DNA of 64,000 nucleotides. Source: Armatimonadota bacterium. GTDB lineage: Bacteria > Armatimonadota > UBA5829 > DTJY01. This document shows, one piece after another, positions 11,656 to 59,336 of this stretch. The stretch covers positions 37,896 to 101,895 of the forward strand of contig JARYMF010000007.1 in NCBI GenBank assembly GCA_029907255.1. The letters run 5' to 3'. Numbering within the stretch: position 1 is the stretch's first letter; every line of letters starts with the position of its first letter. Below the pieces are notes generated by a model. The model saw only the letters and a program-made list of their open reading frames with translations, searched no databases and was not told where the DNA came from. A program made the position numbers and the translations under genes.

Positions 11656-11671
11656 TGGCACGAAAATTGCT
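11656..11671 (+). promoter_or_regulatory. Sigma-54 -24/-12 promoter upstream of the CheX-like gene
   Basis: Sequence gcTGGCACgaaaaTTGCTgttaatg. It ends 59 nt before the TTG start at 11731. Confidence 0.55.
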
Positions 11672-29474: not shown

Positions 29475-30290
29475 CTACCTGATTAGTGCCAGTAGCGCTT
29501 GCGGCGCTGCGTTCGCCTGCGTAAGCATTGCAACGCCAGCCTGCAGTAGAATCTGGTTGCGTGTAAACGCTACCATTTCCGCTGCCATGTCGCTGTCTCT
29601 AATCGAGCTTTCAGATGCGGCGATGTTTTCCTTTGCTACGCCAAGGGACGCTATGTTGGACTCGAGGTCCTTTTGTGCCGCACCTAACTGGGCTCTCATT
29701 GTAGATACCGTGTTTATTGCGGTATCAAGCAGTGAGATAGCGCCCTGAGCGTCAGTAGTAACGTCTATTGAGGCCACACCCAGAGCTTCTGCAGAGACGT
29801 TTTCAATGCTTATGGTTGTCGTCTGGTTGGCGTTTGCACCTACCTGGAAAACTAAACCGCTAGCAGTACCATCCAATAGCTTCTTCGTACCGAACTGCGT
29901 GTTCGCAGAAATTCGGTTAAGAGCTGATATCGCAGAATCAATCTGCGTCTGGTCTGCTTGCAAAGCGGTTTCATCGTTTGCACCTTCGTTTGCCGCGTGC
30001 AGTGCCAGGTTGCGCATTGTGCGAAGCAGGTTCTGGACTTCGGCCAGAGCGCCCTCAGCTGTCTTTATCATATTGACTGCATCGCTTGAGTTTGCTATCG
30101 CCTGGCCTAGACCACTAATCTGGCTGCGCAGGTTTTCAGAAATTGCCAGTCCTGCCGGGTCATCTGCTGCTCGGTTGATTCTAAAACCAGATGACAACCG
30201 TTCGATTGACGCAGCTAATGCAGAGTCAGTGCCCTGCAACTGACGGTGCGCATTGAGCGCTGCTGCATTCAGGTTGATCCGTAAAGACAT
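29475..30290 (-). CDS. fliC: Flagellin (short form, D0/D1 only)
   Basis: 271 aa. N-terminus MSLRINLNAAALNAHRQL...RINRAADDPAGLAISE. C-terminus ILLQAGVAMLTQANAAPQALLALIR. RBS aaggaggagga. Confidence 0.95.
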   Translation of the reverse strand: MSLRINLNAAALNAHRQLQGTDSALAASIERLSSGFRINRAADDPAGLAISENLRSQISGLGQAIANSSDAVNMIKTAEGALAEVQNLLRTMRNLALHAANEGANDETALQADQTQIDSAISALNRISANTQFGTKKLLDGTASGLVFQVGANANQTTTISIENVSAEALGVASIDVTTDAQGAISLLDTAINTVSTMRAQLGAAQKDLESNIASLGVAKENIAASESSIRDSDMAAEMVAFTRNQILLQAGVAMLTQANAAPQALLALIR

Positions 30291-38984: not shown

Positions 38985-39000
38985 TGGCATAGTAATTGCT
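38985..39000 (+). promoter_or_regulatory. Sigma-54 -24/-12 promoter upstream of the sugar-modification island
   Basis: cccTGGCATagtaaTTGCTgtatatt. Its flanks are almost identical to the flgB promoter. It ends 90 nt before the ATG at 39091. Confidence 0.55.
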
Positions 39001-39090: not shown

Positions 39091-39585
39091 ATGGATATTA
39101 AGCGGCATTCTGATTACAAACCTATAAAAATTGCTTTCTTCGATGTTGACGGCGTCCTTACTGATGGAACAAAGTTCTATCACGAAGACGGCACAGTTTC
39201 TAAGCTTTTTCACGACCAAGATAGCACAGGCTTGCGAATGTTAACCCAAAATGGGGTGGAGGTCATTATCATTTCCGCCGATGAGCGCGTTAATAGAAAT
39301 TGGGCGGAACATCAAAGCCTGCCTTTCTATTGCACAGCTGACAAGGCAGAAACTGTAGCAGAGTTATTGGACAAGAAGGGATATGATGGCAAATCGGCTG
39401 CCTTCGTGGGAGATGACCTGAGGGATCTTGAAGCCATGAAGCTTGTTAGATATTCAATGGCTCCTGCAAATGCATCGCGGCAAGTTCGTCGAATAGCAAA
39501 GTTTCGGCTTCGCCGTGCTGGTGGCTCGGGTGCTGGGCGTGAGGCGGCAGAATTAATTCTGCGGATAAACCGTTTCATCTTTTAG
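39091..39585 (+). CDS. KdsC-family HAD sugar-phosphate phosphatase
   Basis: 164 aa. FFDVDGVLTDG and VGDDLRDLEAM, the C0 HAD KdsC/YrbI pattern. Confidence 0.75.
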   Translation: MDIKRHSDYKPIKIAFFDVDGVLTDGTKFYHEDGTVSKLFHDQDSTGLRMLTQNGVEVIIISADERVNRNWAEHQSLPFYCTADKAETVAELLDKKGYDGKSAAFVGDDLRDLEAMKLVRYSMAPANASRQVRRIAKFRLRRAGGSGAGREAAELILRINRFIF

Positions 39586-39651
39586 AAACGTTGCTTATTA
39601 TCGCAATTGAATGTGTGGCGTTCTAAATTTCACAAAGCAAAGGAGTAGCCG

Positions 39652-41421
39652 ATGAGAAGCGTAGTGTTGCTTGCAGCAGGAATGGGGACAAGGCTTGGTT
39701 CAATGACAGAAAAGTTGCCTAAATGCCTTATTCCCTTTAATGGCAAAACGCTTCTAGAATACACCATCGAGAAGCTCCGACGCTTTAACTTTGATAATAT
39801 CGTGGTCGTTGCTGGTTATCGCCATGACCAAGTGCGCCGAATTGTTCCGGATATCTTGGTGAACGAGGATTATGCTACTACTCAGCCTCCTTATTCCCTC
39901 CGCATTGGTCTTGAAAGAGTACCTCATGGACCTGTTCTTGTTATGGATGCAGATATTTATTTCGAGGATCGTGTGCTCGAGGAAATTCTCAAAATGGGGG
40001 ACAGGTCTTTTATTATTACCTCCACTGCCGAATCTAAGCTGGAGCCAGGCAGCCGCGTGAATGTTAAAGATGGCCGAGTCGTTCAAATTGGACGCTATAT
40101 TTCGCCGTTATTCCCCTGGCAAATCCACAGCGGGATTACTCATATTAGCTCGGCTGACTTTGATTACTACAAGTATCTTGCCAATCAGGATACGTTCCGC
40201 ACAACCGAAATGCATGTTCTTTTGAACGAATTGTGCAAGAAAAGACTAATTCTTGCAATCAATATGGAGAAAACACGGGTTGAACGAAAAACAGGGGACA
40301 TCTTTCTCGATGGAGGTTCATTTTCTGACGTATTAGTAACCGAGCAGGACAATATAATAAGGAAGGAAAGCGCGAAGGATACTGAAAGGCTAATAAACGA
40401 GATATATTATCTCCGTGACTTGCCTGAAGAACTTCGGCCTCATTTTACAGAGCTTTTGGATTACAACGTCGAAGGACCAGTTGTTTGGTATACGATGCCA
40501 CATTATCCTCAGCCTTCGCTTAAGAAGCTCATTCTTTCAGGCCAGTTTACCGCACTTGATGCAGTAGAAGTTCTTACTAGAATAGTTAAATTCCTGGTTG
40601 AAAAGGTTTATGTACTGCGTCGCATTGATGCCCCAGCAAGCTACACTGCGTCTGTGCACTTTAACAGGGTTGATGTTCGTCGTGAAATGGCTTTAAAGCA
40701 AGCCCCGATATTAAAACAGGTTTTTGGAGCAAAGAAGTTCATAATTAACGGCTTGGAGTATGAGAATCCATTTGACATAATCGAAAAGATTAGAAGCCGT
40801 GTAAAATTGGTGAGCACTCTTCAACCGCCGTATCTGTGCATGATTCACGGCGATCCACATTTCGATAACCTGCTGATTGACACGTCGCAGACGCCTTGTG
40901 GTTTCCGCTTGGTAGACCCGAAGGGTTTCTGTGCCGGAGACCCCATGTACGATATATCCAAGCTTTTCCACGATTTTCAAGGTCTTTATGACTTCATATA
41001 TGAATACATGTTTGATTTGAATTGGCAGGTGCAAGGTGATGTTTTTGAAGCCGAATTCCAAATTCACAACTGTGCTGCCCTTCGAGAGTTTCAAAAGATT
41101 AATGAATATTTTCCAACAATTGTTTCACAGTTTTTTGAGAGCGACCCAAACTGGTATTTGCGCATGAAATTCATCGAGGCAATTCATTTTAATTGCCTTC
41201 AGCCGTTTCATATTAAAGGAGATGGCATAGAGTCGAAAGCAATTGCCATGTTTCTTGTTGGCGTTCAGCAGATGAACAACTTTTGGGAAATGGTCCCACC
41301 CGACCTCAAGAAAGAAGATTTGAAGTATAAGTTGGTTAATATCAACACTATTGAGGACTTTACATACGCACGAAGCCTGTTTAAGTCGGATTTGAATAAA
41401 GCGCAAGCGAAAGCAGCTTGA
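39652..41421 (+). CDS. Bifunctional nucleotidyltransferase (LicC/RmlA-like) plus APH/choline-kinase-like kinase (LicA-like) fusion
   Basis: 589 aa. N-terminus LLAAGMGTRLG...KCLIPFNGKTLLEY. C-terminal Brenner motif HGDPHFDNLLID...RLVDP. Confidence 0.7.
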   Translation: MRSVVLLAAGMGTRLGSMTEKLPKCLIPFNGKTLLEYTIEKLRRFNFDNIVVVAGYRHDQVRRIVPDILVNEDYATTQPPYSLRIGLERVPHGPVLVMDADIYFEDRVLEEILKMGDRSFIITSTAESKLEPGSRVNVKDGRVVQIGRYISPLFPWQIHSGITHISSADFDYYKYLANQDTFRTTEMHVLLNELCKKRLILAINMEKTRVERKTGDIFLDGGSFSDVLVTEQDNIIRKESAKDTERLINEIYYLRDLPEELRPHFTELLDYNVEGPVVWYTMPHYPQPSLKKLILSGQFTALDAVEVLTRIVKFLVEKVYVLRRIDAPASYTASVHFNRVDVRREMALKQAPILKQVFGAKKFIINGLEYENPFDIIEKIRSRVKLVSTLQPPYLCMIHGDPHFDNLLIDTSQTPCGFRLVDPKGFCAGDPMYDISKLFHDFQGLYDFIYEYMFDLNWQVQGDVFEAEFQIHNCAALREFQKINEYFPTIVSQFFESDPNWYLRMKFIEAIHFNCLQPFHIKGDGIESKAIAMFLVGVQQMNNFWEMVPPDLKKEDLKYKLVNINTIEDFTYARSLFKSDLNKAQAKAA

Positions 41422-41439
41422 GAATACCAAAACGGAGAA

Positions 41440-44400
41440 GTGCGAATGGGAGAAGAAAAGGTTCTAGGAAGGCATAAGAGAAGAGTAGCTTGTTATGCGA
41501 CATTACCGTTCCAATTGCGGTCTCTCAAGCCAATTGCTGATGGATTTGAGGATTCACTTATTAGCTATAGTCATAAGGAGATAATGGATTGGCAGCCAGA
41601 TGTTATTATTACCGCTGATGTTTCTCAGCTGCCTCTTTTCCGTGAGTACTGCGATGCCCACAATGTCCTATTAATAGGTATGAGACATGGTCCAGCTACA
41701 AAATACACTTCTCCTGAAAAAGAATACTCCGTCGCAGACTATGTTTGCGCTAGCGACTGGGATGTGGACGATTTTACGAAGGCTGGCGTTAGACCGAAGC
41801 GAGGTTTCTTGCTTACCGGCAATCCTTGGGTAGACGACGTATTCAAAATTCCCGAGCGCAAACTTTGCAAGGATGCTCCTACAATTCTATTTGCTCCAAC
41901 CTATAATCCTGAGGTCAGTGCGGCTAGGTTTTTCGAAGATAAGCTAGCAAATCTTATCCACTCCGTATATCCAAGAAGTAAAATCATTATCAAACCACAT
42001 CCTGCTATTCTACAATACGACCATCCGTATGTTGTTCAACATCGTGAAATATTTCGTCGTTGGATTAGACAGTGGCTTGCTATATGCCAGGATTCAAATC
42101 TTGTTACATTAATCGATGACCCTGCAGCATCAATTAGTCAGTTCTTTCCAGATGCGGATATTTTAATTTCTGATGGCTCCTCGTTAATATTTGAGTTCAT
42201 GGTGCTAAATCGCCCAATTCTTTTGTATACGAGCCCTGAGAAAGTAGGAATATGGGAGTATGATTCAAGGGCGCTCGGCAATGCCTGGCGCGATGTGGGA
42301 ACGGAGTTCACTACGCAAGAGGAGTTCATTTTTGCTTTAAAGAACGCTTTTGTCAATCATTCCGAAATACAAAGCACAAAGCAGAAGCAGTACACGAATA
42401 TTCTTTATGGCAACTACCAAGATGGGCAATCAACAGAACGAGTAATCCAAAGCATCAGAAATCTGCCTTATCTGGATATAGCGCTTCTAACGGATAAAAA
42501 TGCTAGCCGTGTAAAAGAGTTCTACGAAGGGTTAAGCAATATTCTCAGAAATAGCACCATACATGTTCTTGAAGACATAGAACCTGAGGGAAAAGACTCT
42601 CAGCTAAATGCCTTTTTTGAGAAGAGCGATTCACAGTTTGTTATGGTGATTGATTATGACAGGGGAAAGAGGTTGCAATGTGCAGATTTCATTAGCCGTT
42701 CGCTACAAATTATGTCGCAAGACCCATCAGTTGCAGCTGCTGGCAGGTTGGTAGACGGGTGGGTTGAACGCAGTTTTGCAATTTTTGATAGAAAAAAGGT
42801 TTTGGACGTGGGAGGATTCTCCAAGTCAGATTCTGACTTATGCATGAGGCTTTTAGAGAAAGGTTGGAAAGTAATCTCTGCATGGGACGATAGACCGGTG
42901 ATTAGGTTTGAAAGTGGCTTTTATGACGAGGAACACGGCGTGCGATGGATGGCAGAAGAAGCAGTTATGCGCGTTGGATGGAGTGTGTGCGATGTTGAGA
43001 AATTCCCACCTTTATGCCTCACATTTGATGTTGTGTGTTCGAATTCCAAGCATTATCCAAACTTCCCATTTAGTCTAAAAATATACGATGGCGAAGCAAC
43101 GATTAAAGAGATTCGTTTTGACAAGTCCTATAAAAAAGAAAAAGTTGAGATTTTGCTTCCTTGTATTGAAGGGCCCCATACTCTTCGATTTATAAGCGAT
43201 GAGTCCTATGTTCCTCGCGAGATTGGCATAAACGGCGACCCCAGAAGGCTTTCAGTAATGATTAACAATGTAAAACTAAATGCACAAATCTTAAATAAAC
43301 ATATACAAACTGAATGCCCAGTTCGTTTAATTGCCTTCTACTTGCCGCAGTTTCATCCCATACCTGAAAACGATAAGTGGTGGGGAAAAGGCTTTACAGA
43401 TTGGGATAATGTTCGAAAAGCTAAACCATTATTCGAGGGACACTACCAACCACACATGCCGGCCGACCTAGGCTACTATGACCTTCGCAATCCTGAAGTT
43501 CGTGAAGCGCAAGCTGAAATGGCAAAAAAATATGGGATAGAAGGCTTTTGTTACTGGCATTATTGGTTTAATGGAAAAATGTTGCTTGAGAGACCTTTTA
43601 ATGAAGTGCTTGAGTCAGGAAAGCCTGATTTCCCCTTCTGTCTCGCATGGGCTAATGAAAATTGGACGCGAAATTGGGATGGGCACGAAAACCTAATTCT
43701 TCAGCCTCAAGAGTATGGTGGAGAGGCTGATGATTTTGCTCATTTCGAATGGTTGCTAAAGGCGTTTAGAGACCCAAGATACATTAAAGTAGACGGGAAG
43801 CCCTTATTCCTCATATACAGACCCATGGATATCCCAAATGTTGAAAACACGCTTGCATTGTGGCGGCAATTAGCTGGGAGTGCTGGGTTGCAAGGCTTGT
43901 ATGTAATCGCCATCAGAATTAGTCTCGACAAAACGGTAGACGGGTACTGGTTAAAGCAAGGTTTCGATGCCGAGCTATTATTTCAGCCATCTTTTGGAAG
44001 GCTATGGGATAAATATGGAGCGGGTGAAATCCCGGGGGTTCTTAATGAATATGGCGAAGGTGATGGCGAGCCAGGGCTTATTCTAAATTACAATGACGCA
44101 TGGCATGTAATGGCTAGCATGGAAGGCAACTGTTTGCGAACGGTAGTTCCTTCTTGGGATAACACTCCGCGTAGAAAATATGGTGCTTTCATTCTAAGAG
44201 ATTCTACGCCTAAGGCATATGGCGAGTGGCTCAAACTTGAAATTGAGCGTGTGAGCAGTAGACCTCCAGAACAGCGGATTGTCTTTATCAATGCATGGAA
44301 TGAATGGGGTGAGGGCAATCATCTGGAGCCAGATGTTCGCTTCGGGCACGGCTACCTCGAGGCGACCAAGCGAGCAATTGTTGGTGCTCAAACAGCAAGG

Positions 44401-46728
44401 CTTTATTCAATGGGTAAGTTGCACGAAGCTGTTTCGCTACTGGAAGAGCATATCATGGCAGACCAGAATGATGCTCAGGCATACAATGACCTTGGCGTCC
44501 TGTATTTCGAAAAAGGCGAAATTGAGAAAGCGCAATATTGTCTTGAGAAATCGCTTGCGCTAGATGAGACCGATGATACTGTTCGGAAAAACCTTGTGGA
44601 CCTTTATCTTGCTTGCGGGCAATCGGAAAGAGCAGCAAAGCTAACTGGCAATGCCCAAGAGGATTCTAGTTGTCCAGGCTGCAAGTCTGCCAGACCTAGG
44701 ATAATTGCAATACTTGCCGCTTACAATGAAGGCGACGTTATATACCATGTAATTCGGGATTTAATCGAGCAAGATATTGAAGTATACCTTCTAAACCATC
44801 ATTCAACAGACAATACAGTTGAAGAAGCATCAAAATGGTTGGGCAAGGGCCTTATTGGCATAGAATTGTTTCCTGAAGAGAGTGGTCTCGACATTCCAAA
44901 TGATGTGTTTGCTCTTCGCTATATTCTTATGCGCAAGGAGCAGCTTGTTCGACAATTTGGTCCCGGTTGGTACATCAATGCAGATGCCGATGAGTTCCGC
45001 GAGTCGCCTTGGCCTGGTTTGAATCTCCGTGAGGGAATCGAACGTGTAGACGCATTGGGATACAATACAATCAATTTTGCAATTTTTGATTTTAAGCCAA
45101 CTGATAATTCATTTGTGCCTGGCGATGATGTCCGCAAATACTTGACCGGTTACTCAGCACCTGCCGTTTCGTGGGACAAAATGCAGGCAAGGTGTTGGAA
45201 GTATTGGGGCCAGGATTTCAAACTTTGGCATACCGGTGGTCATCTAGTTCAATTCGAAGGCAGGCGCGTATTTCCTATCCCGTTTATCCTCAGGCATTAC
45301 CCAATTAGAAGCGAAGCACATGGAGAGACTAAGATCTTCAGCCAACGAAAAAACCGCTTTGATGAAAATGAAAAAGCCGCTAACTGGCATGTGCAGTATA
45401 ACGATATCACTCGGGAAAATAAGAGATTCCTATGGGACAAGTCTCAGCTTACCCAATACGACAGAGACGAAGTGTGCCGCCAAATCCATAAGAGATTCGC
45501 TGGTGTGGAACTATCCGAGGATAATAGCGAAATAAGGATTGCAATTGTAGTTCTAGTCCACAACCAGCTCGATGACACAAGAAAGTGCTTGGAAAGCATA
45601 AGGCGACATACAAATCTGCCGTATGAGCTTGTGGTGGTGGATAACGGCTCCACAGATGGCACGGAGCAGTATCTTGAAGAGATTAAGACCAAATGGAATT
45701 CAAAACATTGCAGGGCAATCAAAGTCATACGTCATGAGACTAATCTTGGTTATGCGGCAGGCAACAACTCAGGTATTTTGGCCTCTGAGGGTGCATATGT
45801 TGTTATTCTAAACAACGATACAGTAGTTACTCCTGGCTGGCTTGAGCGTCTGGTTAGATGTGCGGATGATGACCCACGCATTGGTATTGTTGGGCCTGTG
45901 AGCAATAATGTTTCAGGTTCTCAACAAGTCGAAAGCGTTGATTATGACCAGTCTACTCTAGAGGGGCTTGAGGAATTTGCCAAGAAGTGGGCTGCCTTGC
46001 ATGATAGGCAGATTAAACCAATAACGAGAGTTGTTGGTTTCTGTATGTTGATAAAACGTGAGGTAATCGAAACAATCGGCGGCTTTGACCCAAGATTTGG
46101 GATAGGTAACTTCGAGGATGATGATTTCTCAATTCGTGCTGCGATTGCAGGATATTATTCTGTGGTAGCGCAGGACTGTTTTATTCACCACACTGGCAGT
46201 CGAACTTTTGTTGGTCAAAAGATTAATCATGATGCACTCATGCGAAAAAATTGGGACCTTTTTAAAGCAAAGTGGGGTATACCAGCTGAGCTACCTTTAG
46301 GTATACCGTACAACATGTCGTTTCTTCTCAAGCAAGCGTTCAATCCGGAGCGCCATCGTTGCCCACTGGAAATCTCGAGCTCATCTATTGTTTGGTTTGT
46401 TGCACCAGAGTGGGATAAGCCCGAAACATGGTGTCCGGTAATTGAAGAATATTTGCGGTCAAATGTATCAAAAAAAGATGCGCTTCTTAGCATGTATGCT
46501 GGACCACGCACAGCAAGTGACTCAAGTGCGGCAGCCGAACTGGTGGCTGACTTTTTGGCAACGCTAGGTGTAGATGAGGGTCAAACTCCCGACATTGAAA
46601 TAACAGGGGAGCTTCCTAAAAACGGGAATGTGCAAATTATACTATCGAACGGCGGGTTGGACGAATTTTTGCAATTTCAGTACCCTGGCCGATGCATTCG
46701 CATAGATGAGTTGCGCAAGGCAGCGTAA
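41440..46728 (+). CDS. Giant multidomain transferase: TagB/TagF-like glycerophosphotransferase + GT-A-like + WbsX-family GT + TPR + GT2 + GT2
   Basis: 1762 aa. TagF motifs [10 protein letters not shown] and [24 protein letters not shown]. WbsX motif [28 protein letters not shown]. GT2 signatures AYNEGD..STDNT and [11 protein letters not shown]..NNDT. Confidence 0.8.
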   Translation: [1762 protein letters not shown]

Positions 46729-46778
46729 TTAGGTGTGACAAGGCAATAGTTGATCTGAGACGGAGGCGAGGTATTAAA

Positions 46779-49007
46779 ATGCCTGTACGAGTTACAAAAG
46801 CCATGACAGTCGGTAATGAGAAACAGTTAGGGCTTGATGCACTAAGGGAAAAACGGTGGGCAGAGGCAGCCGACTATCTGGAAAGAGCACTCAATGGTTC
46901 GCCAGCAGATGTTGAAATTATGAATGCACTGGCAGTTGCATATAGTGCACTGGGTAACGGCAAAGCTGCTCGCACAATACTTGGGCAGGCAGTTCGGGTG
47001 TCGCCAGAATATCCCGAAACATATAAAAATCTTGCGGTGCTACTTGCGCGCGAGGGCAGGGTACTGGAAGCGGCAGATAATGCTTGTCAAGCAGTCGAAC
47101 TTTCTCCTTCTAATCCAGAAAATGTCCGAGTGCTTCGAGAAGTACAAGAACTGGTTCGAAAGCTTTCACATTCGACAAAGAAAGAGAAGAAGTTAAACCG
47201 GCGTGTTGGAGGACCAACGCGCACCGAGATTAATGCGCGCCTTGCTAAGATTAATTCAGTTATTAAAAGGACACAGTCTATTAGCGAACAAGTGCCTACT
47301 CTTTCACTATGCATGATTGTAAAAAACGAAGAAGCAAATCTCGATTCTTGTCTTCGTAGCGTAAAAGGCATCGTGAATGAAATAATCATTGTTGATACCG
47401 GGTCAACAGACCGCACGCCAGAGATTGCACAATCTCATGGGGCAAAAGTTTATTATTTTCCATGGACTGATAACTATGCCGAAGCTCGGAATAAGTCACT
47501 AAGCTATGCAACTGGAACGTGGGTTCTCATACTGGATGCTGATGAGCAGCTTGATAAATCTGCAGGCCAAGTAATTCTTAAGGCAATAAAAGAACCCGTT
47601 GCTGATGCGTTTGCATTGCTTTTCCACAACTATATGTCCGAAAGCCAAGGTCCTGATATGTTTATCCATCGCACTTGCCGGTTGTTCCGCAACAAACCCG
47701 AATATCGGTATGAAGGACGAGTGCATGAACGCATAGTCCCTTCTATTGAGCGGTCGGGTGGAAAAATGGCATATCTCGATGCGGTAATCCACCATTTTGG
47801 CTATAGGCCTGCTGTAATGTTAGAACGTTGCAAGCACGAGCGATATATTCGCCTTCTTGAAGCAGACCTTGCGGAGAACCCAAATGATCCATATTGCCTC
47901 TACAATCTAGCTTCTGTTTACATAACAAAAGGCAACTATAAGGAGGCGCTTGGATATCTTAAGAAGGCTGAGGAATACATTACGCGAAGTCATGAATTTG
48001 CTGCTGCCACTTATTCGCATATGGCGCATGCCTTTTGTGAACTTGGGAGTCCAGAAGAGGCTATAAACGCATTGGAGCGGGCGCAAAACAAAGGCATATG
48101 CCATCCTGAATTGAATTTTGCGAAGGGGAATGCTCTTCTAGTCCTTGGGAGATATGCAGAAGCAATCACTGAGTTTGTGTCTGCTGTCCAGCTCGGCCAG
48201 AGTGGTGGATGGATTGGTGATCCTGGTGCATTTGGATATAAGGCATATTTTGGAATAGCTAGTGCTTGCATGGGATTGCAAGATTACCAGAAGGCTGCTG
48301 AATATGCCGAGCTGGTGGTAAAAGAAAACCCTGGTGACGCTAAGGCACATGAACTCCTAACCATTGCTTATCTTCGTTTAGGCAAGATGGCTCAGGCTGA
48401 AAAACATGGAAAGGAGTGGCTTCGATTATCGCCGGGTGATGCCCGGGCAGTGATAGGTTTTGCCCAGGTTTTGCAGGCAAGCGGTCAATTTAAAGAGGCA
48501 AGGAATCTCTATGTTTCGCTTCTAGATTTGGATTGCGAAACTGCTGAACTTCATTTCAACTTGGGTGTTTGTGCAGAGGCACTCAATGAGCTTGAAGATG
48601 CTAGTCGGCATTTTACCAGGGCAATTGAATTGCAGCCTGATTTTGTCGAGGCGCATACCAACTTAGGACGGTGTCACGCGAAACAAGGGCGAATCTCTGA
48701 AGCGCTTGCTTGTTTTGCACACGCTGTGGAAATAGACCCGGGGTATGCGAATGCTTATTTTAATGCAGGGGATATTCTGTATTCGGCTGGCCGTTATGAG
48801 GATGCTATAAATGTCTATCAGAATGGGTTAATGTGTTATCCAAATAATCCTGCTGCATTCCTTGCCATAGGAAATTGCTACTTCCGCATGGGGGCGTATG
48901 AAGCCGCTATTATGGGTTACCGCCAAGCTTTGGCTCTTCGCCCGAATTACCCTGAGGCCCAAGCTAATCTTTCTAAGGCTCTACAGCATGTAAAATCCTC
49001 AGTTTGA
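46779..49007 (+). CDS. TPR-GT2-TPR glycosyltransferase (GmaR-like flagellin glycosyltransferase candidate)
   Basis: 742 aa. Central GT2 domain LSLCMIVKNEEANLDSCLRSV...VDTGSTDRT...LDADE, flanked by TPR repeats. Confidence 0.75.
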   Translation: MPVRVTKAMTVGNEKQLGLDALREKRWAEAADYLERALNGSPADVEIMNALAVAYSALGNGKAARTILGQAVRVSPEYPETYKNLAVLLAREGRVLEAADNACQAVELSPSNPENVRVLREVQELVRKLSHSTKKEKKLNRRVGGPTRTEINARLAKINSVIKRTQSISEQVPTLSLCMIVKNEEANLDSCLRSVKGIVNEIIIVDTGSTDRTPEIAQSHGAKVYYFPWTDNYAEARNKSLSYATGTWVLILDADEQLDKSAGQVILKAIKEPVADAFALLFHNYMSESQGPDMFIHRTCRLFRNKPEYRYEGRVHERIVPSIERSGGKMAYLDAVIHHFGYRPAVMLERCKHERYIRLLEADLAENPNDPYCLYNLASVYITKGNYKEALGYLKKAEEYITRSHEFAAATYSHMAHAFCELGSPEEAINALERAQNKGICHPELNFAKGNALLVLGRYAEAITEFVSAVQLGQSGGWIGDPGAFGYKAYFGIASACMGLQDYQKAAEYAELVVKENPGDAKAHELLTIAYLRLGKMAQAEKHGKEWLRLSPGDARAVIGFAQVLQASGQFKEARNLYVSLLDLDCETAELHFNLGVCAEALNELEDASRHFTRAIELQPDFVEAHTNLGRCHAKQGRISEALACFAHAVEIDPGYANAYFNAGDILYSAGRYEDAINVYQNGLMCYPNNPAAFLAIGNCYFRMGAYEAAIMGYRQALALRPNYPEAQANLSKALQHVKSSV

Positions 49008-49075
49008 ACCAAACCCGAAGGTTTTTCTCCCGCCAGTGTTTAATAAATTTGCGGTTGATGTAATTCATCCGTGGA

Positions 49076-50026
49076 TTGACTAAAATGGAACGCCGCGAAT
49101 TAGGGAGAACAGGTATCTGGGTATCAAGGCTTGCCTTCGGGACGCTGCCTTTCAAACTCCACGAAATGCCAATTAGCGATGGCGCGGAACTTCTTGTTTC
49201 TGCGGCAGAAATGGGCATCGATTTTTTTGACCTCGCAGAAATTTATGGTTCATATCCTCACATGCAGAAAGCTCTTAAGCATATGGAGTTACCTCCTATA
49301 ATTGCCGCCAAGTCCATGGCAAAGGACGCAAGCTCCATGATTACTTCAATCAACACTGCGCTTCGAGAAATTGGCGTACCAAGGCTTGACATTTTCAAGC
49401 TTCATAACGTGGATAGCGTCGAGGACTTGAATAGTAGATTGCCTGCGTGGGAAGAGCTAGTTAAGGCTAAATCAAAGGGATTAATTCGTGCAATTGGTGT
49501 ATCTACACATTCCTGCCGCGTGTTAGAGGAAGTCATTAGTTGGCCCGAGTTGGACGTTGTTCTAGTGGTTTTTAATAGAGGTTTTAAGGGTGTTGTGGAA
49601 GGAACAATGGCAGAGATGCTGGATGGCATCAAGGCAGCCCATAGCGCTGGCAAGGGTGTCTACATTATGAAGGCACTTGGCGGTGGGCTACTGTACGCGA
49701 ATGCTAGGGAAGCTTTGGAGTTCGCATTTAGCGTTGAAGAAGCTGATTCGGTTGCCGTTGGAATGCATAGCCTCCAAGAAGTAATATACAATGTGGCTGT
49801 GTGCAAGGGCGAGGCTGTTCCGCCTTCCGTAGAAACGAGTCTAAAGCAGCGTAAAAGACGCTGGCATGTCCGTCCATTCTGCCGAGGTTGTGGGGCTTGT
49901 ATATCCGCTTGCCGTTATGGAGCACTCCGCATGGGCGAGAAAACGCCAGTTGCGGATGAGGAGAAGTGCATACTTTGTGGATATTGCGGCTTCGAATGTC
50001 CTGCGATGGCGATTAAAATATTGTAG
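49076..50026 (+). CDS. Aldo/keto reductase fused to a C-terminal 2x[4Fe-4S] ferredoxin domain
   Basis: 316 aa. AKR core (LGRTGIWVSRLAFGT). C-terminus CRGCGACISAC...CILCGYCGFECP. Confidence 0.7.
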   Translation: MTKMERRELGRTGIWVSRLAFGTLPFKLHEMPISDGAELLVSAAEMGIDFFDLAEIYGSYPHMQKALKHMELPPIIAAKSMAKDASSMITSINTALREIGVPRLDIFKLHNVDSVEDLNSRLPAWEELVKAKSKGLIRAIGVSTHSCRVLEEVISWPELDVVLVVFNRGFKGVVEGTMAEMLDGIKAAHSAGKGVYIMKALGGGLLYANAREALEFAFSVEEADSVAVGMHSLQEVIYNVAVCKGEAVPPSVETSLKQRKRRWHVRPFCRGCGACISACRYGALRMGEKTPVADEEKCILCGYCGFECPAMAIKIL

Positions 50027-50182: not shown

Positions 50183-51010
50183 TTGGAGATGCCAATGAAG
50201 TTTTCAATTTGCAACGAGCTTTTTGAAAATTGGCCTATAGAGAAAGTATTCGTTACTGCTGCCGAAATCGGATATGATGGCGTTGAGATTGCCCCGTTCA
50301 CTCTCGCAACATCGGTTTACGAAATCATAGATGCACGACGCCGAGAGATTGCTCGAGCTGCCGCTGATGCTGGTGTTGAGATTGTTGGGCTTCACTGGTT
50401 GCTGGTGAAACCAGAAGGATTATATATCAATCATCCAGATGCAGATGTTCGCAAGCGAACGCGCGACTACCTTGATGCGCTGATTTGCTTGTGCAGTGAT
50501 CTCGGTGGTCGCGTTCTCATTTTCGGCTCGCCGAAGCAGAGGAACGTGCACGAAAGCCTAACTTACGAGCAGGCTTGGAATTACGCATGCGAAACATTTT
50601 CGCATTGTGCGGAAAAGGCACGGGAAAATGATGTCTACCTTTGCATAGAGGCGCTACCTCCGCGGGAGACCAACTTCATAAACACAGTTGAGGAAGCGCT
50701 GGCAATGGTTCGTGCAGTTGGTAAGCCTAACTTTCGCACAATGGTTGATGTAAAAAGCATGTGCTCCGAGGCTCGGTCAATTCCGGAGATTGTTTGTAGC
50801 GCAGGTGAACATATCATGCACGTTCATGCTAATGACGCAAGTGGACGAGGGCCAGGGATGGGCGATACAGATTTTCATGTTGTGTCGTCAGCCCTTCGCG
50901 AAATCAGGTATAATGGCTATGTCTCGGTAGAGGTTTTCGATTACAAGCCCGACCCAATAACAATTGCAAAGCAAAGTTTAGCTTATTTGAGGGAAACGTT
51001 TGGTTGTTAG
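50183..51010 (+). CDS. Sugar phosphate isomerase/epimerase (xylose-isomerase-like TIM barrel)
   Basis: 275 aa with AP-endonuclease-2/IolE-type barrel motifs. The first codon is TTG; the ATG at 50195 is probably the real start. A TGnTATAAT extended -10 sits at 50157-50165. Confidence 0.7.
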   Translation: MEMPMKFSICNELFENWPIEKVFVTAAEIGYDGVEIAPFTLATSVYEIIDARRREIARAAADAGVEIVGLHWLLVKPEGLYINHPDADVRKRTRDYLDALICLCSDLGGRVLIFGSPKQRNVHESLTYEQAWNYACETFSHCAEKARENDVYLCIEALPPRETNFINTVEEALAMVRAVGKPNFRTMVDVKSMCSEARSIPEIVCSAGEHIMHVHANDASGRGPGMGDTDFHVVSSALREIRYNGYVSVEVFDYKPDPITIAKQSLAYLRETFGC

Positions 51011-51081
51011 ATATTCGCTGAGGATTTTTCTTTTCCAGTAATAGAAGAGAACAAAAAACTTAATTTTGAGATGATTCAGCC

Positions 51082-52461
51082 ATGACTATCAGATTTTTCA
51101 ATACATTAACCCGCGAAAAAGACGAATTTCGAGCAATAAATGACATGAAGGTTGGACTCTATACCTGTGGGCCAACCGTATATGACTTCGCCCATATTGG
51201 AAACTGGCGCACTTACTTATTCGAGGATATTCTTCGGCGACACCTCGAATACCGCGGTTTCGAAGTAGCACACGTGATGAATATCACGGATGTTGACGAC
51301 AAGACAATACGCGGTGCTAGGGAAAAAGGCATAAGTCTCAACGAGTATACTCTTCCATTTATTGAGGCTTTTTATGAGGACAGGGACCATCTAAACATCG
51401 AGCCGGCGCATGTATACCCCAGGGCGACCGAGCACATTCAGGAGATGGTTGCCCTGATAAAGAAGCTTCTTGACAAAGGTATAGCATATAAAGCTGAAGA
51501 CGGCTCGATTTACTACGACATCTCAAAATTTCCTGGCTACGGCAAACTTTCTCATTTTAAGATAGGAGAGTTGAAAGCCGGCGCACGGGTTAGCTCCGAT
51601 GAATATGAAAAAGAGCAGGTTTCCGATTTTGCTCTTTGGAAGGCTTGGGATGAGGCAGACGGCAATGTATATTGGGACACTGAGCTTGGAAGAGGCCGAC
51701 CCGGATGGCATATCGAATGTTCAGCAATGAGCATGAAGTATTTGGGCGAAACATTTGACATCCATACTGGTGGCGTTGATAACATCTTTCCACATCATGA
51801 AAACGAAATAGCCCAGTCTGAGGCTGCAACCGGAAAACCATTCGTCAACTATTGGCTTCACTCAGAGCACCTCCTCGTAGAAAATCGCAAAATGAGCAAA
51901 TCACTTGGCAATTTCTACACGCTCAGAGATGTAATGGCTCGAGGGTATGATCCACTTGCGTTTAGGTATTTGGTCCTTGGTGCACATTATCGGTCAAAAT
52001 TGAATTTCACTTGGCAAGCGCTGGATGCGGCTGAAACAGCGCTTGAGAATTTATATGAATTCGTAGCGCGGCTCGACAGGGAAAACCCAACTGGACTTGA
52101 TGACGCGGTCGCCCGCTGGACTAGTGCGTTTGATGAAGCAATGGATGACGATTTGAATACGCCTGTTGCACTGGCTGCGGTGTTTAGTTTGATTAAAGAG
52201 GTCAATATTCACGGCCGTGGTGGTCGAGAAGTCTTCGCTGCAATGGTGAACTTTGACCGAATTCTAGGTCTCAAGCTTTCCGAGCGAGGGGTGCCTTTTG
52301 AAGTGGAAATACCCTCGGATATAATGAGACTCGTCGAAGAACGTCAGAAGGCAAGAAAGGCACGCGATTTTGCTACCGCCGATCGCATCCGCGATGAGAT
52401 TCTAGCTGCCGGATACATAGTAGAGGATACCCCCGAGGGTCCCAGAGTAAAGAAGAAATAG
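51082..52461 (+). CDS. cysS: Cysteinyl-tRNA synthetase (class I; HIGN variant of HIGH)
   Basis: 459 aa. CGPTVYDFAHIGN, Zn/Cys-site residues (GWHIECSAM, HTGGVDNIFPHHENEIAQSEA) and KMSKS are present. The C-terminal anticodon-binding part is present. Confidence 0.8.
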   Translation: MTIRFFNTLTREKDEFRAINDMKVGLYTCGPTVYDFAHIGNWRTYLFEDILRRHLEYRGFEVAHVMNITDVDDKTIRGAREKGISLNEYTLPFIEAFYEDRDHLNIEPAHVYPRATEHIQEMVALIKKLLDKGIAYKAEDGSIYYDISKFPGYGKLSHFKIGELKAGARVSSDEYEKEQVSDFALWKAWDEADGNVYWDTELGRGRPGWHIECSAMSMKYLGETFDIHTGGVDNIFPHHENEIAQSEAATGKPFVNYWLHSEHLLVENRKMSKSLGNFYTLRDVMARGYDPLAFRYLVLGAHYRSKLNFTWQALDAAETALENLYEFVARLDRENPTGLDDAVARWTSAFDEAMDDDLNTPVALAAVFSLIKEVNIHGRGGREVFAAMVNFDRILGLKLSERGVPFEVEIPSDIMRLVEERQKARKARDFATADRIRDEILAAGYIVEDTPEGPRVKKK

Positions 52462-52527
52462 GGGGTTTGCAATTTTTAACCATGGGCTCCAAGCGATAAT
52501 AGAGCAGTAAGTTTGAGGAGGCTAATT

Positions 52528-53229
52528 ATGCGAATTTTAGCAGTTGGGGCGCATCCCGACGATATAGAAATCCTATGCGCTGGCACACTTGCTAAGTATG
52601 CAAGCCAAGGCCATGACATTATTATGTGCCATGCATGTATTGGAGATAAAGGGCATTTCCACATTCCAAATGATGAGCTTGCGAAAATTAGGCGCAAAGA
52701 GGCTCAGCTATCGGCAAGCAGGATTGGAGCCGAAAGCATATCGCTGGGCATACCAGACTGTGAAATTTTCAATAATCGAGAGACTTTGGCGGTATTCATT
52801 GATATGATTCGCGTAACTAAGCCCGACTTGATAATTACGCACTCGCCAACTGACTATATGCCTGATCATTGTGTAGTTAGTGGCTTGGTTTATGATGCAT
52901 CCTTCCATGCCTCGTTGCCTAATTGGAAGACAGAGCACGAATATCACGACAAAGTTCCACCGGTTATCTATATGGATAACGTTGCTGGGGTGGACTTTGA
53001 ACCAGGCGAATATGTGGATATTACGGATTTTATTGAAAAAAAGAAGGAAATGATGATGTGTCATCAGAGTCAAGTCGTCTGGCTAAAAGAGCACGATAAC
53101 CTGGATGTTATTCAGTTTATAGAAGATTGCGCTAAGTTCCGAGGATGGCAGTGTGGTGTTAAATACGCAGAAGCTTTCCGTACTGTCAACCGCTGGCCTA
53201 GATTGAGAACTCAGCGGTTGCTGCCTTGA
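52528..53229 (+). CDS. PIG-L/LmbE-family N-acetylglucosaminyl deacetylase
   Basis: ATG at 52528 with GAGGAGG 6 nt upstream. MRILAVGAHPDDIEILCAGTLAKY...HSPTDYMPDH. Confidence 0.8.
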   Translation: MRILAVGAHPDDIEILCAGTLAKYASQGHDIIMCHACIGDKGHFHIPNDELAKIRRKEAQLSASRIGAESISLGIPDCEIFNNRETLAVFIDMIRVTKPDLIITHSPTDYMPDHCVVSGLVYDASFHASLPNWKTEHEYHDKVPPVIYMDNVAGVDFEPGEYVDITDFIEKKKEMMMCHQSQVVWLKEHDNLDVIQFIEDCAKFRGWQCGVKYAEAFRTVNRWPRLRTQRLLP

Positions 53230-53307
53230 TTTTATACGCTTGGAAAGATCTCTTTCCAAAAATCCAATCATTTTATTCGTTTTAATTTCGATATTGGAGG
53301 TACAGCT

Positions 53308-54573
53308 ATGTCAGCAGATAAACTAGCAATCAATGGTGGAACGCCTGTTAGAACAGCTCCATTTCCACCATGGCCCTATTTTTGGGATGATATGAAAGCT
53401 GCTGTAAAGGAAGTTCTGGATAGCGGAAAAGTCAACTATTGGACAGGCTTTCGCGGAATGGAGTTCCAGAAGCGATATGCTGATTACTGCGGAGTTAAGC
53501 ATGCAATAATGTTGAATTCTGGCACGAGTGCACTGCATGTAGCATATGCCGCCGCAGGAATTGGCCCCGGAGACGAAGTCATAGTTCCATCTTATACCTT
53601 TATTGCCACTGCAGCTGCTGTTTTGCACCAGAATGCTATCCCGATTTTCGCTGATGTCGAGGAAAAGACGTGGAACATTGATCCAAAGTCGGTTGAAGCC
53701 CTCATTACTGAGCGCACGAAGGCTATTGTGCCAGTTCATCTTCATGGTCATCCGGCAGACATGGACGCAATTAATGCAATTGCCGCAAAGCACGGATTAG
53801 TGGTGATAGAGGATGCCGCTCAGGCACACGGCGCTGAGTATAAGGGGAAGAAAATAGGTTCTCTTGGAGATTTGGCAGCATTCAGCTTTTGCCAGGACAA
53901 AATTATAACAACCGGCGGCGAAGGCGGGGCGGTGACTACTGACAACGATGATTATGCTGAAATTGCGCGCAGTTTCAAAGACCATGGTTATTGGGAAGAA
54001 GAGCGTAAGGACCTTCTCCAGATGGAGGCACTCTATCCATATATCCACCATCGGATGGGATTTAACTACCGCATGACTGAAATGCAAACAGTTATTGGAA
54101 TGGCGGCCCTTGAGCGTCTTGATGAATGGGTTGAAAAGCGACGGGCTAATGCTCATTTCCTAACTAAGCGGTTGTTAGAGATTCCACAGGTCGAGCCGCC
54201 GTATGAGTCTCCGGATGTAAAGCATGCGTTCTATAAGTATGCTTTCAAGATAAAACCTGAGATGCTGAATTGCACGCGAGACGAGTTCATCCATGCCCTA
54301 CGTGCTGAAGGCATTCCGTGTGTTGCTGGTGTTCCACCGGAAAACTACAAAGAAGAAGTTTTCCTAAAAATGGTTGGTTATGGAAATACCAAATGCCCGT
54401 TTAAGTGCCCGTGGTATAAAGGCAATGTAGATTACAGCAAGGTTGACTGCCCAACTGCACGAAGGATTGGCATGCAGACCATTTGGTTGTTAGTACATCC
54501 AACGATAGATGAGCAATGTCTTGAAGACATGGCAACAGCTGTCGCTAAGGTTGCGACGGCTTATGCGAAGTAA
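53308..54573 (+). CDS. DegT/DnrJ/EryC1/StrS-family PLP-dependent aminotransferase
   Basis: 421 aa. NSGTSALHVAYAAAGIGPGDEVIVPSYTFIATAAAV...SFCQDK (PLP-binding Lys). The long C-terminus has Cys pairs. Confidence 0.9.
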   Translation: MSADKLAINGGTPVRTAPFPPWPYFWDDMKAAVKEVLDSGKVNYWTGFRGMEFQKRYADYCGVKHAIMLNSGTSALHVAYAAAGIGPGDEVIVPSYTFIATAAAVLHQNAIPIFADVEEKTWNIDPKSVEALITERTKAIVPVHLHGHPADMDAINAIAAKHGLVVIEDAAQAHGAEYKGKKIGSLGDLAAFSFCQDKIITTGGEGGAVTTDNDDYAEIARSFKDHGYWEEERKDLLQMEALYPYIHHRMGFNYRMTEMQTVIGMAALERLDEWVEKRRANAHFLTKRLLEIPQVEPPYESPDVKHAFYKYAFKIKPEMLNCTRDEFIHALRAEGIPCVAGVPPENYKEEVFLKMVGYGNTKCPFKCPWYKGNVDYSKVDCPTARRIGMQTIWLLVHPTIDEQCLEDMATAVAKVATAYAK

Positions 54574-54587
54574 ATGGAGTTAAAAGA

Positions 54588-54616
54588 AGCGGGGGTTTAA
54601 CCCCCGCTATTTTTTA
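54588..54616 (+). terminator. Rho-independent terminator after the DegT gene
   Basis: agcggggg-tttaa-cccccgct followed by aTTTTTTaa. A second imperfect hairpin follows at 54618-54655. Confidence 0.7.
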
Positions 54617-54670
54617 AGCCGAAGCAAGCAAAAAATTTTAGTTGCTTTTCGGCTTGGGAGGTTGCCTGAT

Positions 54671-59264: not shown

Positions 59265-59336
59265 GAAATATTCGTTGTTATTTGCTAATTGGCAATCATT
59301 CAGTTTAGCAACTGATGTTAGTAGAGGCTCTTCCAT

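Follow-up and report, generated by a model that had tools for sequence, protein, structure and literature searches.

An operon beside the flagellar genes of an Armatimonadota bacterium probably adds a small molecule through a phosphodiester link (phospho-X) to the O-glycan of flagellin, by way of a kinase, a nucleotidyltransferase and a TagF-type phosphotransfer. We put the probability of this reading at roughly 0.6. The operon lies in a 64,000-nucleotide stretch of contig JARYMF010000007.1, from a metagenome-assembled genome (MAG); we refer to this whole stretch as the window. The central gene (39652-41421, plus strand) encodes a 589-amino-acid protein in which a nucleotidyltransferase is joined to a kinase. 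The product is 100% identical to MDH7481944.1, which NCBI labels just 'NTP transferase domain-containing protein'.

The original prediction, made from the letters of the window, described this gene as a LicC-LicA-like enzyme that could plausibly work with a TagF-like transferase to add a phospho-substituent from a CDP-alcohol. Our analysis indicates that the observation is real and that the biosynthetic inference is largely sound, with comparative support and precedent in the literature. The labels LicA-like, cytidylyl, alcohol, choline and glycerol are unproven.

A nucleotidyltransferase fused to a predicted kinase

The N-terminal domain (amino acids 1-185; 39652-40206) is of the LicC/MobA type. 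Pfam NTP_transf_3 matches amino acids 4-115 (E 3e-17, 63.6 bits). The motif AAGMGTRLG is present at amino acids 8-16, as are the canonical residues G10-x-G12-T-R14...P23-K24 and D99-x-D101. The top solved-structure match is LicC (1jyk), with E 5e-12 for the single sequence and 81.9 bits for a profile, and HddC-like structures are among the other matches. The LicC score covers the nucleotide-binding half only, whereas the same profile matches the sugar-1-phosphate nucleotidyltransferase ST0452 over its full length (75.4 bits). The best NCBIfam match is an archaeal model of the GlmU type. The sequence of this domain does not reveal which nucleotide or which type of phosphate ester it uses; CTP is most probably the nucleoside triphosphate (NTP) used.

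The C-terminal domain (about amino acids 221-555; 40312-41316) appears to be a divergent APH/protein-kinase-like small-molecule kinase. Pfam APH (PF01636) matches amino acids 392-442 (E 1.9e-5, 25.0 bits against a cutoff of 23.2), and all 10 of the 10 clade members match the same family (best E 9.6e-11). The catalytic-loop motif HGDPHFDNLLID is found at amino acids 399-410. In an alignment of 36 sequences (26-72% identity), K238, E250, H399-G-D401, N406 and D422 are invariant or at least 90% conserved; their roles (the catalytic loop HGDxxxxN, the metal-binding Asp and the N-lobe Lys/Glu) are assigned by analogy. With an AlphaFold model of the domain (predicted local distance difference test score, pLDDT, 79), Foldseek retrieved aminoglycoside phosphotransferases only, APH(3') and APH(2''), at probability 1.0 and with TM-scores of just 0.33-0.58. 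Together, the sequence and the model point to a bilobal, divergent kinase of the APH superfamily. The kinase is neither of the GHMP nor of the PfkB type.

The comparison with LicA did not hold up. There was no match to Choline_kinase (PF01633) at E<=0.01 for the whole protein, and none at E<=1 for 10 family members. Alignment of the kinase by hhalign to P0013, a genuine fusion of NTP_transf_3 and Choline_kinase, gave a probability of 1.7%. Two homologues carry the label 'choline kinase' from JGI annotators.

A TagF-like domain opens the next gene

As predicted, the gene that follows (41440-46728, plus strand; 1762 amino acids) opens with a domain of the TagF/TagB type (amino acids 1-345; 41440-42474). 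Pfam Glyphos_transf (PF04464) matches amino acids 90-339 (E 9.7e-16, 58.1 bits against a cutoff of 22.1), which corresponds to profile positions 126-365 of 367. Homologues of the domain are labelled 'CDP-glycerol glycerophosphotransferase family protein' by NCBI.

Several motifs of the domain are conserved among 16 relatives. RHG (82-84) and KPHP (185-188) are fully invariant. In FAPTYN (151-156), F151-A-P-T and N156 are invariant and Y155 is kept in at least 90%, and in DILISDGSS (240-248) the residues D240, L242, D245 and S247 are invariant. FAPTYN, KPHP and SDGSS align to FAPTFR, KMHP and SDYSS of TarL. His83 may be the counterpart of the catalytic histidine that was mutated in TagF H444N and TarL H300N. 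A model of the domain (pLDDT 88.9) has TagF (3l7j; E 7.6e-12, TM 0.57), Bcs3 (8a0c) and TarL (8va1) as its top PDB matches; UDP-N-acetylglucosamine 2-epimerases, which also have the GT-B fold, score about equally. PDB sequence matches of the domain to Cps3D and TarL are weak and of low identity.

A KdsC-type phosphatase lies directly upstream

Immediately upstream of the fused gene, again as predicted, is a gene for a 164-amino-acid HAD-IIIA phosphatase of the KdsC/YrbI type (39091-39585, plus strand). Its best matches are the model for 2-keto-3-deoxynononate 9-phosphate (KDN-9-P) phosphatase (93.3 bits, E 1.6e-26) and TIGR01670 (88.9 bits, E 3e-25), and both scores are below the curated cutoffs (180 and 106.95, respectively). 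The HAD motifs DVDGV and GDDLRD and the C-terminal GGSGAGRE are intact. None of its 15 NCBIfam matches is a phosphoserine-phosphatase or ThrH model.

The fused gene adjoins a phosphotransferase gene in all seven close-relative loci

We found that the pairing of the fused gene with a phosphotransferase gene is conserved. A word-indexed search of 5.8 billion protein clusters gave about ten full-length homologues of the fused gene only. Their loci, with the window included and with a second Armatimonadota MAG (L037) that was reached through the TagF domain, make seven distinct loci. In 7/7, the fused gene is adjacent to a gene for a TagF-like enzyme (the window, L037, L004/L005 and L007) or a LicD-family enzyme (L001/L002, L003 and L006), which argues that the arrangement is not a chance juxtaposition. 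One of the LicD neighbours matches a cholinephosphotransferase model weakly.

Other partners recur. The KdsC-type phosphatase gene is directly 5' of the fused gene in four of the seven loci and is syntenic with it in L004/L005, L007 and L037, and also in L008. In L037 (3416-3925) an assembly gap, written as a run of N, splits the phosphatase gene, which was therefore called as two short open reading frames (ORFs); the gene is probably intact in the organism. A gene for an RmlD-like reductase precedes in 5/7 loci, the window and L037 being the other two. Methyltransferase genes are present in L003, L004/L005 and L007, and also in L030, a locus found through the TagF domain and described below. 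Flagellar genes flank the fused gene in three loci (the window, L037 and L004). In L007, the module of HAD, fused and TagF genes is beside a pair of ABC-2-type exporter genes.

The TagF clade itself has a similar habit. In 7/7 loci in which both flanks could be read, a member of the clade is accompanied by a cytidylyltransferase, whose family varies from locus to locus, and most of these loci are near flagellin genes. In Armatimonadota the LicC-like domain and its kinase take this place. In Ignavibacterium album (L038) it is TagD-like and lies next to flagellin, fliS and fliD genes. In L030, from Pseudomonas aeruginosa (GCA_050470845.1, contig JBDLZG010000016.1), it is IspD-like, with a methyltransferase gene and flaG, fliS and fliT nearby; the TagF homologue there has 532 amino acids and is 55% identical over 66% of the query. 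The L030 flagellar island is unlike the PAO1 b-type cluster, running from a methyltransferase through the IspD-like and TagF-like genes and two genes whose products have no Pfam match to flaG, fliS and fliT. In L039 a TagF relative has flagellin nearby, and L040 has a TagF and IspD-like pair without flagellar genes. Flagellar genes adjoin the clade in the window, L037, L004, L030, L038 and L039. These comparisons strongly support the notion that the adjacent activating enzyme supplies the donor for the TagF domain, and that this TagF clade has specialised in glycans associated with flagellin.

The closest homologues of the fused gene outside Armatimonadota are on contigs catalogued as viral by IMG/VR. 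Two of these are IMGVR_UViG_3300035701_000011 (97 kb; L001/L032) and IMGVR_UViG_3300033150_002805 (77 kb; L003/L031); the two homologues on these 77-kb and 97-kb contigs are 61% and 48% identical to the window's protein in the kinase domain. The modules on viral contigs, L006 among them, contain genes for an RmlD-like reductase, the fused enzyme, LicD, glycosyltransferases (GTs), a PIG-L deacetylase and methyltransferases, and they have no flagellar context. PIG-L genes accompany the fused gene in both L001 and L003, and L003 also has capsid genes like Mu gpT. Phages therefore appear, from gene content, to encode a pathway for decorating glycans with phospho-X.

The operon lies beside the flagellar genes

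The flagellar regulon occupies 801-38855 of the window. On the plus strand are rpoN (801-2213), fliF/G/H/I, fliK, flgE, motAB, fliM/N/O/P/R, flhB/A, a gene for a YcgR-like PilZ protein and the sigma-28-like fliA (25107-25898). On the minus strand are fliD, the gene for a 271-amino-acid flagellin with a Ser/Thr-rich central stretch (29475-30290), fliW, flgL, flgK, flgI, flgH, flgA, flgG and flgF. We presume that this flagellin is the protein substrate of the pathway. The presumed operon (39091-50026, plus strand) diverges from flgF, and the five genes in this string are separated by gaps of 18-68 nucleotides.

The operon probably has a sigma-54-type promoter. A promoter-like motif matching the consensus, TGGCAT-N5-TTGCT, is at 38985-39000 (plus strand), 91 nucleotides 5' of the phosphatase start codon. 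The pattern TGGCAYN5TTGCW occurs four times in the window against 0.16 expected, and none of 100 shuffled sequences reached four. All four sites are on the plus strand, and the other three (2328-2343, 11656-11671 and 20466-20481) are in flagellar operons. The sites sit at or near the starts of flagellar transcription units or of the glycosylation operon. Scans of 38.8-52.6 kb for sigma-70 promoters and intrinsic terminators gave no more matches than shuffled sequence did.

Two genes of the operon probably bear on the glycan. The 1762-amino-acid protein continues beyond its TagF-like domain with an unassigned region, a WbsX-family GT-like domain (amino acids 630-976; 43327-44367; PF14307, E 2.6e-138), TPR repeats (amino acids 984-1068; 44389-44643) and a GT2 family domain (amino acids 1367-1590; 45538-46209; Pfam and NCBIfam), ahead of which, from about amino acid 1080, is a weaker GT-A-like stretch. 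The gene after it (46779-49007, plus strand) encodes a 742-amino-acid TPR-GT2-TPR protein (Glycos_transf_2, E 1.2e-24; SunS-family model, E 2.6e-26; many TPR matches), which from its architecture and position is a candidate flagellin-directed O-glycosyltransferase.

We found no other source of a donor for the TagF domain in the window. No other nucleotidyltransferase related to the fused enzyme is encoded there. In agreement with the original prediction, no LicD gene was found either, in Pfam scans covering almost every window ORF of 150 amino acids or more or with a LicD hidden Markov model (HMM) run on six-frame window ORFs of at least 70 amino acids. The HMM was built from the LicD genes of the relatives and replaced a strict regular expression, which had missed even known LicD genes. 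The fused enzyme is thus the sole visible donor source.

The kinase belongs to a large family

An exhaustive search with an HMM of the kinase domain retrieved 2846 representative proteins at E<=0.001; a threshold of E<=1e-10 left 1237 of them and one of E<=1e-30 left 204. The family comprises at least 204 clusters (50% identity) at E<1e-30. Most of the best 150 are fusions of 500-600 amino acids with an N-terminal nucleotidyltransferase-like domain. Of 59 fusions whose N-domain is recognisably homologous, 13, the window's clade included, keep the GxG(T/S)R signature and 46 have lost it. At several loci of signature-less fusions there is a second, intact NTP_transf_3 paralogue nearby; no solved structure is related to the C-terminal parts of these paralogues.

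The family also has stand-alone kinases and fusions to an RmlD-like reductase. In P0050 a clear HAD domain is fused to the kinase. In P0086 a HAD-like N-terminus (a weak Pfam match with a DxDGV-type motif) precedes the nucleotidyltransferase-like and kinase domains. The fusions of the kinase to HAD (in P0050, weakly in P0086) and to an RmlD-like reductase speak for a small-molecule pathway. Carriers among the named genomes include Aminicenantes, Omnitrophota, Woese-, Nano- and Pacearchaeota, Synergistaceae, Oscillospiraceae, Verrucomicrobium sp. 3C and Methylacidiphilaceae. The family is common in DPANN archaea and extends to phages and to many uncultured bacteria, and giant members occur (for example P0095, 6244 amino acids).

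We surveyed 126 neighbouring proteins at 17 loci of the wider family, all from named genomes. The recurrent neighbours are an RmlD-like reductase, which is the constant and commonest partner, extra NTP_transf_3 proteins, methyltransferases, HAD, Phosphodiest, radical-SAM/B12 and HMGL-like proteins. The neighbours at these 17 loci yielded no clue to the substrate.

Proposed pathway

From the domain identities, catalytic motifs, folds, conserved neighbourhoods and flagellar context, we infer the following pathway, including its substrates, its nucleotide, the order of its steps and flagellin as its target. The APH-type kinase domain would phosphorylate a hydroxyl of a small molecule, X, with ATP. 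The LicC-type domain would join X-phosphate and an NTP, most probably CTP, to give a nucleoside diphosphate (NDP) derivative, NDP-X. The TagF-type domain would attach X-phosphate to a hydroxyl on one of the glycan's sugars, with release of the nucleoside monophosphate. The glycan itself would be built on flagellin by the GT2 and WbsX domains of the 1762-amino-acid protein together with the neighbouring TPR-GT2 protein. The KdsC-type phosphatase would free X from a differently phosphorylated precursor or strip a second, distal phosphate. The course from kinase to nucleotidyltransferase to TagF-like enzyme, and the TagF-like domain as the transferring enzyme, were both part of the original prediction, and both gain support from the adjacency in the relatives, from the pairing of the TagF clade with cytidylyltransferases and from the flagellin systems of Clostridioides difficile and P. 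aeruginosa that are compared below.

Several kinds of X are compatible with these results: an alcohol, for instance a polyol; a hydroxy-amino acid, for which CDP-threonine is the precedent; or a sugar carried as its sugar-1-phosphate. The RmlD-like reductase and the HAD-IIIA phosphatase would fit a heptose-like route, with kinase, phosphatase and nucleotidyltransferase, to a sugar-1-phosphate. They would fit equally well a route of reductase, perhaps phosphatase, kinase and cytidylyltransferase to a polyol phosphate of the CDP-2-glycerol kind. Since hexose-1-phosphate is among the groups that TagF-like domains can transfer, either route would still lead to a substituent joined by a phosphodiester. 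We therefore hold to the general logic of a phospho-substituent; the specific suggestions of phosphocholine and glycerol-phosphate are without direct support. The original prediction would have been refuted by a kinase that clusters with sugar-1-kinases and gives plain NDP-sugars; such clustering is not decisive, because a sugar-1-phosphate could still become phosphodiester-linked.

A bolder version of this proposal, which is possible but which we hold only tentatively, is that the fused enzyme founds an uncharacterised kinase family, for whose kinase domain neither Pfam nor NCBIfam has a curated family model and no structure has been solved. It would make an undescribed nucleotide-activated metabolite, other than CDP-choline, -glycerol, -ribitol or -threonine. 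Enzymes of the TagF/LicD type would then link this metabolite by a phosphodiester to flagellin, and in phages to glycans of the virion or the host, as a new kind of decoration.

Some of our results weigh against the phospho-X pathway. Besides the full-length match of the N-domain to ST0452, the kinase has no characterised kin: no curated NCBIfam model fits the domain, and its profile has no significant match among PDB sequences. The best of these matches, non-significant, are hygromycin-B 7''-O-kinase (E 0.027) and methylthioribose kinase (E 0.09), and no other solved kinase of known substrate, NahK included, was found at E<=10. The kinase could phosphorylate the glycan instead of a free small molecule. 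The profile alignment of the TagF-like domain to TarL begins downstream of His83, short of the catalytic histidine. The RmlD-like reductase, the usual partner in the relatives and normally an enzyme of NDP-sugars, is absent from the window, and the role given to the phosphatase is ad hoc if X is an alcohol. Finally, LicD and TagF are not in the 25 commonest neighbour families of the wider kinase family (each seen at least 4 times among the 126 neighbours), so the link to phosphotransferases is specific to the window's clade.

Alternative explanations

Our results might also indicate that the fused enzyme simply supplies an NDP-sugar. This is the main rival and we regard it as unlikely. A salvage-type anomeric sugar kinase would be joined to an NDP-sugar pyrophosphorylase, following the logic of AmgK/MurU, NahK and FKP, and the product would go to a Leloir GT domain for an ordinary glycosidic bond. 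In a variant that makes use of the HAD-IIIA phosphatase, a heptose-type route would lead from a sugar-n-phosphate through the 1,n-bisphosphate to the sugar-1-phosphate. In either form, the donor for the TagF domain would be made elsewhere in the genome. The matches of the N-domain to ST0452 and to the GlmU-type model fit this explanation, as do the RmlD-like reductase, the weak kinase matches, neither of them significant, and the several GT domains of an operon that has no other sugar-activating gene. Kinase, HAD-IIIA phosphatase and nucleotidyltransferase are also the set on which the GDP-heptose pathway is built. However, at each of its seven loci the fused gene has a TagF-like or LicD neighbour, each TagF-clade relative has a cytidylyltransferase of its own, and a second source of donor for the TagF domain is not encoded in the window. 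In addition, the kinase is of neither sugar-kinase type (GHMP or PfkB), and a GmhA-like isomerase is absent. The same phospho-X chemistry could instead be aimed at a cell-envelope polysaccharide or a lipid-linked glycan, with the flagellar genes nearby only incidentally. The exporter genes beside the L007 module would be explained in this way, as would the phage contigs and the TagF and IspD-like pair of L040, both of which are without flagellar genes. We consider an envelope target improbable. The module is directly beside flagellar genes in three Armatimonadota loci (the window, L037 and L004), and the operon shares its sigma-54-like motif with flagellar operons. Pfam scans of the window ORFs found no Wzx/Wzy, no ABC-2 exporter and no initiating phosphoglycosyltransferase, and TPR-GT2 proteins and large soluble multi-GT proteins seem typical of cytoplasmic flagellin glycosylation.

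Two narrower pathways are far less probable. A strict LicC-LicA pathway, making CDP-choline and placing phosphocholine on the glycan, would account for LicC as the nearest solved structure, for the JGI labels and for the LicD neighbours in relatives, including the one that resembles a cholinephosphotransferase. It is very hard to reconcile with the failure to match PF01633, the lack of similarity to the genuine fusion P0013 and the lack of LicD in the window, and it leaves the conserved reductase and phosphatase partners unexplained. That phosphatase and nucleotidyltransferase act in a pathway of the 3-deoxy-D-manno-octulosonate (Kdo) or nonulosonic-acid type, ending in a CMP-ulosonic acid, we think scarcely credible. 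The best models of the phosphatase are indeed those for KDN-9-P and Kdo-8-P phosphatases, and nonulosonic acids are common flagellin glycans. Pfam scans of the window ORFs, however, found neither a synthase of the KdsA/NeuB type nor CTP_transf_3 (KdsB/NeuA), the nucleotidyltransferase is of the LicC/MobA type, and the phosphatase, below both curated cutoffs, travels with the kinase family, in which a HAD domain can even be fused to the kinase. For the same reasons (no synthase, no CTP_transf_3 and sub-cutoff scores) we rejected the assignment of the phosphatase to a separate Kdo or nonulosonic-acid pathway.

Other features of the window

Two regions of the 1762-amino-acid protein have no Pfam match: amino acids 346-629 (42475-43326) and 1591-1762 (46210-46728). 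The first, in which there is a DYD motif at amino acids 405-407, perhaps consists of a degenerate GT-A domain with a beta-rich module after it.

The last gene of the string (49076-50026, plus strand), which may belong to the operon, encodes an aldo/keto reductase fused to a 4Fe-4S ferredoxin domain (Pfam). This protein may stand in for the RmlD-like reductase of the relatives; its membership in the pathway is conjecture.

Beyond the operon, at 50183-56715 and on one strand, are genes for an IolO-like TIM-barrel epimerase, CysS, a PIG-L-family deacetylase, a DegT aminotransferase, a GFO/IDH/MocA oxidoreductase and a Zn-dependent dehydrogenase. This set recalls the tailoring of aminosugars or (amino)cyclitols, and the pair of cysS and PIG-L recalls MshC/MshB. 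The CysS is probably a housekeeping enzyme, because it has the DALR and anticodon-binding domains. That these genes make a cyclitol or aminocyclitol X is speculation, since most of them lie on the far side of cysS from the operon and have no link to it. Further on (56718-61190) are two unusual fused ABC-transporter components, one joining a solute-binding protein to a permease (848 amino acids) and the other a weakly GH42-like N-terminal half to a permease (617 amino acids).

Significance and comparison with known systems

In C. difficile, phosphodiester-linked decorations of flagellin glycans have effects on motility and virulence, and flagellin glycosylation is aberrant in mutants of the homologous P. 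aeruginosa genes. The logic of a CDP-activated non-sugar donor used by a TagF-like transferase was demonstrated only in 2023-2026. Our results suggest the same logic in a deep-branching, uncultured phylum, with the phospho-precursor made differently, by a dedicated kinase fused to the activating enzyme. They also indicate that one TagF clade is repeatedly paired with interchangeable cytidylyltransferases at flagellin loci across unrelated phyla. The locus draws attention to a large, partly phage-borne kinase/nucleotidyltransferase family without a characterised member, which could yield new nucleotide-activated metabolites and chemoenzymatic tools. If the substituent is ordinary, such as glycerol-phosphate or a hexose-phosphate, the finding shrinks to a new member of a known chemistry.

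The LicC/LicA/LicD pathway, including fusions such as P0013, has in common with the window a fusion of nucleotidyltransferase and kinase in the same domain order, an N-domain nearest to LicC, and LicD neighbours in the phage-borne and other relatives. It differs in that the window's kinase is not of the choline/ethanolamine kinase family, the window has no LicD, and the conserved reductase and phosphatase partners have no Lic counterpart.

The GDP-D-glycero-alpha-D-manno-heptose pathway (GmhA, HddA, GmhB and HddC) likewise combines a kinase, a HAD-IIIA phosphatase and a nucleotidyltransferase, and it moves phosphate from the distal to the activated position. In contrast to the window's APH-type enzyme, its kinase is of the GHMP type; it has the isomerase GmhA, which the window lacks; and its product is used by Leloir glycosyltransferases rather than by TagF or LicD enzymes.

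In the CDP-2-glycerol pathway, Gtp1 is reportedly a reductase, Gtp3 a glycerol-2-phosphotransferase, Gtp2 the cytidylyltransferase that forms CDP-2-glycerol and WchX the transferase. Compared by gene logic alone, the module of the relatives has the same order of reductase, kinase, cytidylyltransferase and phosphotransferase. Unlike that pathway, the window has no reductase of this kind, and we know of no phosphatase in the Gtp pathway. The gene set of Streptococcus pneumoniae is Gtp1, Gtp3, Gtp2 and WchX (PMC1391919).

TagF-like domains transfer glycerol-phosphate or hexose-phosphate, and multidomain capsule polymerases with TagF, GT and TPR modules are known (PMC5974469). Those polymerases (Cps1B, Cps3D, Cps7D, CslB and Bcs3) resemble the window's protein in having TagF-like, GT-A/GT-B and TPR modules in one polypeptide (PMC5974469). 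They polymerise capsules from ABC-transporter capsule loci, whereas the window's operon is flagellar and without export genes, and sequence identity is low.

The closest known system, likened here by domain type and context and not by pairwise sequence comparison, is that of FtaABCD and PA1088-PA1091. In the Type A modification of C. difficile (FgtA and FtaABCD, cd0240-cd0244), the LicC-like FtaB is thought to make CDP-threonine, FtaC methylates it, and the TagF-like FtaD puts N-methyl-phosphothreonine on flagellin-linked N-acetylglucosamine; the FtaC and FtaD steps have been reconstituted in vitro (bioRxiv 10.64898/2026.02.12.704994; PMC10714395). In the b-type cluster of P. aeruginosa PAO1 (PA1088-PA1091), PA1091 is a GT2 flagellin glycosyltransferase fused to a phosphotransferase (PMC11833859), and the window's 1762-amino-acid protein likewise joins a phosphotransferase to GT2. 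Like the window's operon, these clusters are beside flagellin genes and encode a LicC-like nucleotidyltransferase, a TagF-like transferase and an upstream HAD-family protein. For both of those clusters the donor is given as CDP-threonine, whose phospho-moiety the TagF-like enzyme passes to the sugar on flagellin. The differences lie mainly in how the phospho-precursor would be made. The window has an APH-type kinase fused to the nucleotidyltransferase, whereas the Fta and PA systems lack a kinase, and a ThrH-like HAD phosphotransferase is believed to act in its stead. The window's HAD protein is of the KdsC type, in contrast to the phosphoserine phosphatase/ThrH type of FtaA and PA1089. FtaC and PA1088 are methyltransferases; Pfam scans found none in the operon (39091-50026), although the loci L004/L005, L003 and L007 have them. 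The window's transferase is far larger, with five modules. Taken together, these likenesses and differences suggest that the system in the window is most likely a variant of the recently defined pathways for phospho-modification of already glycosylated flagellin, built on an uncharacterised kinase family.

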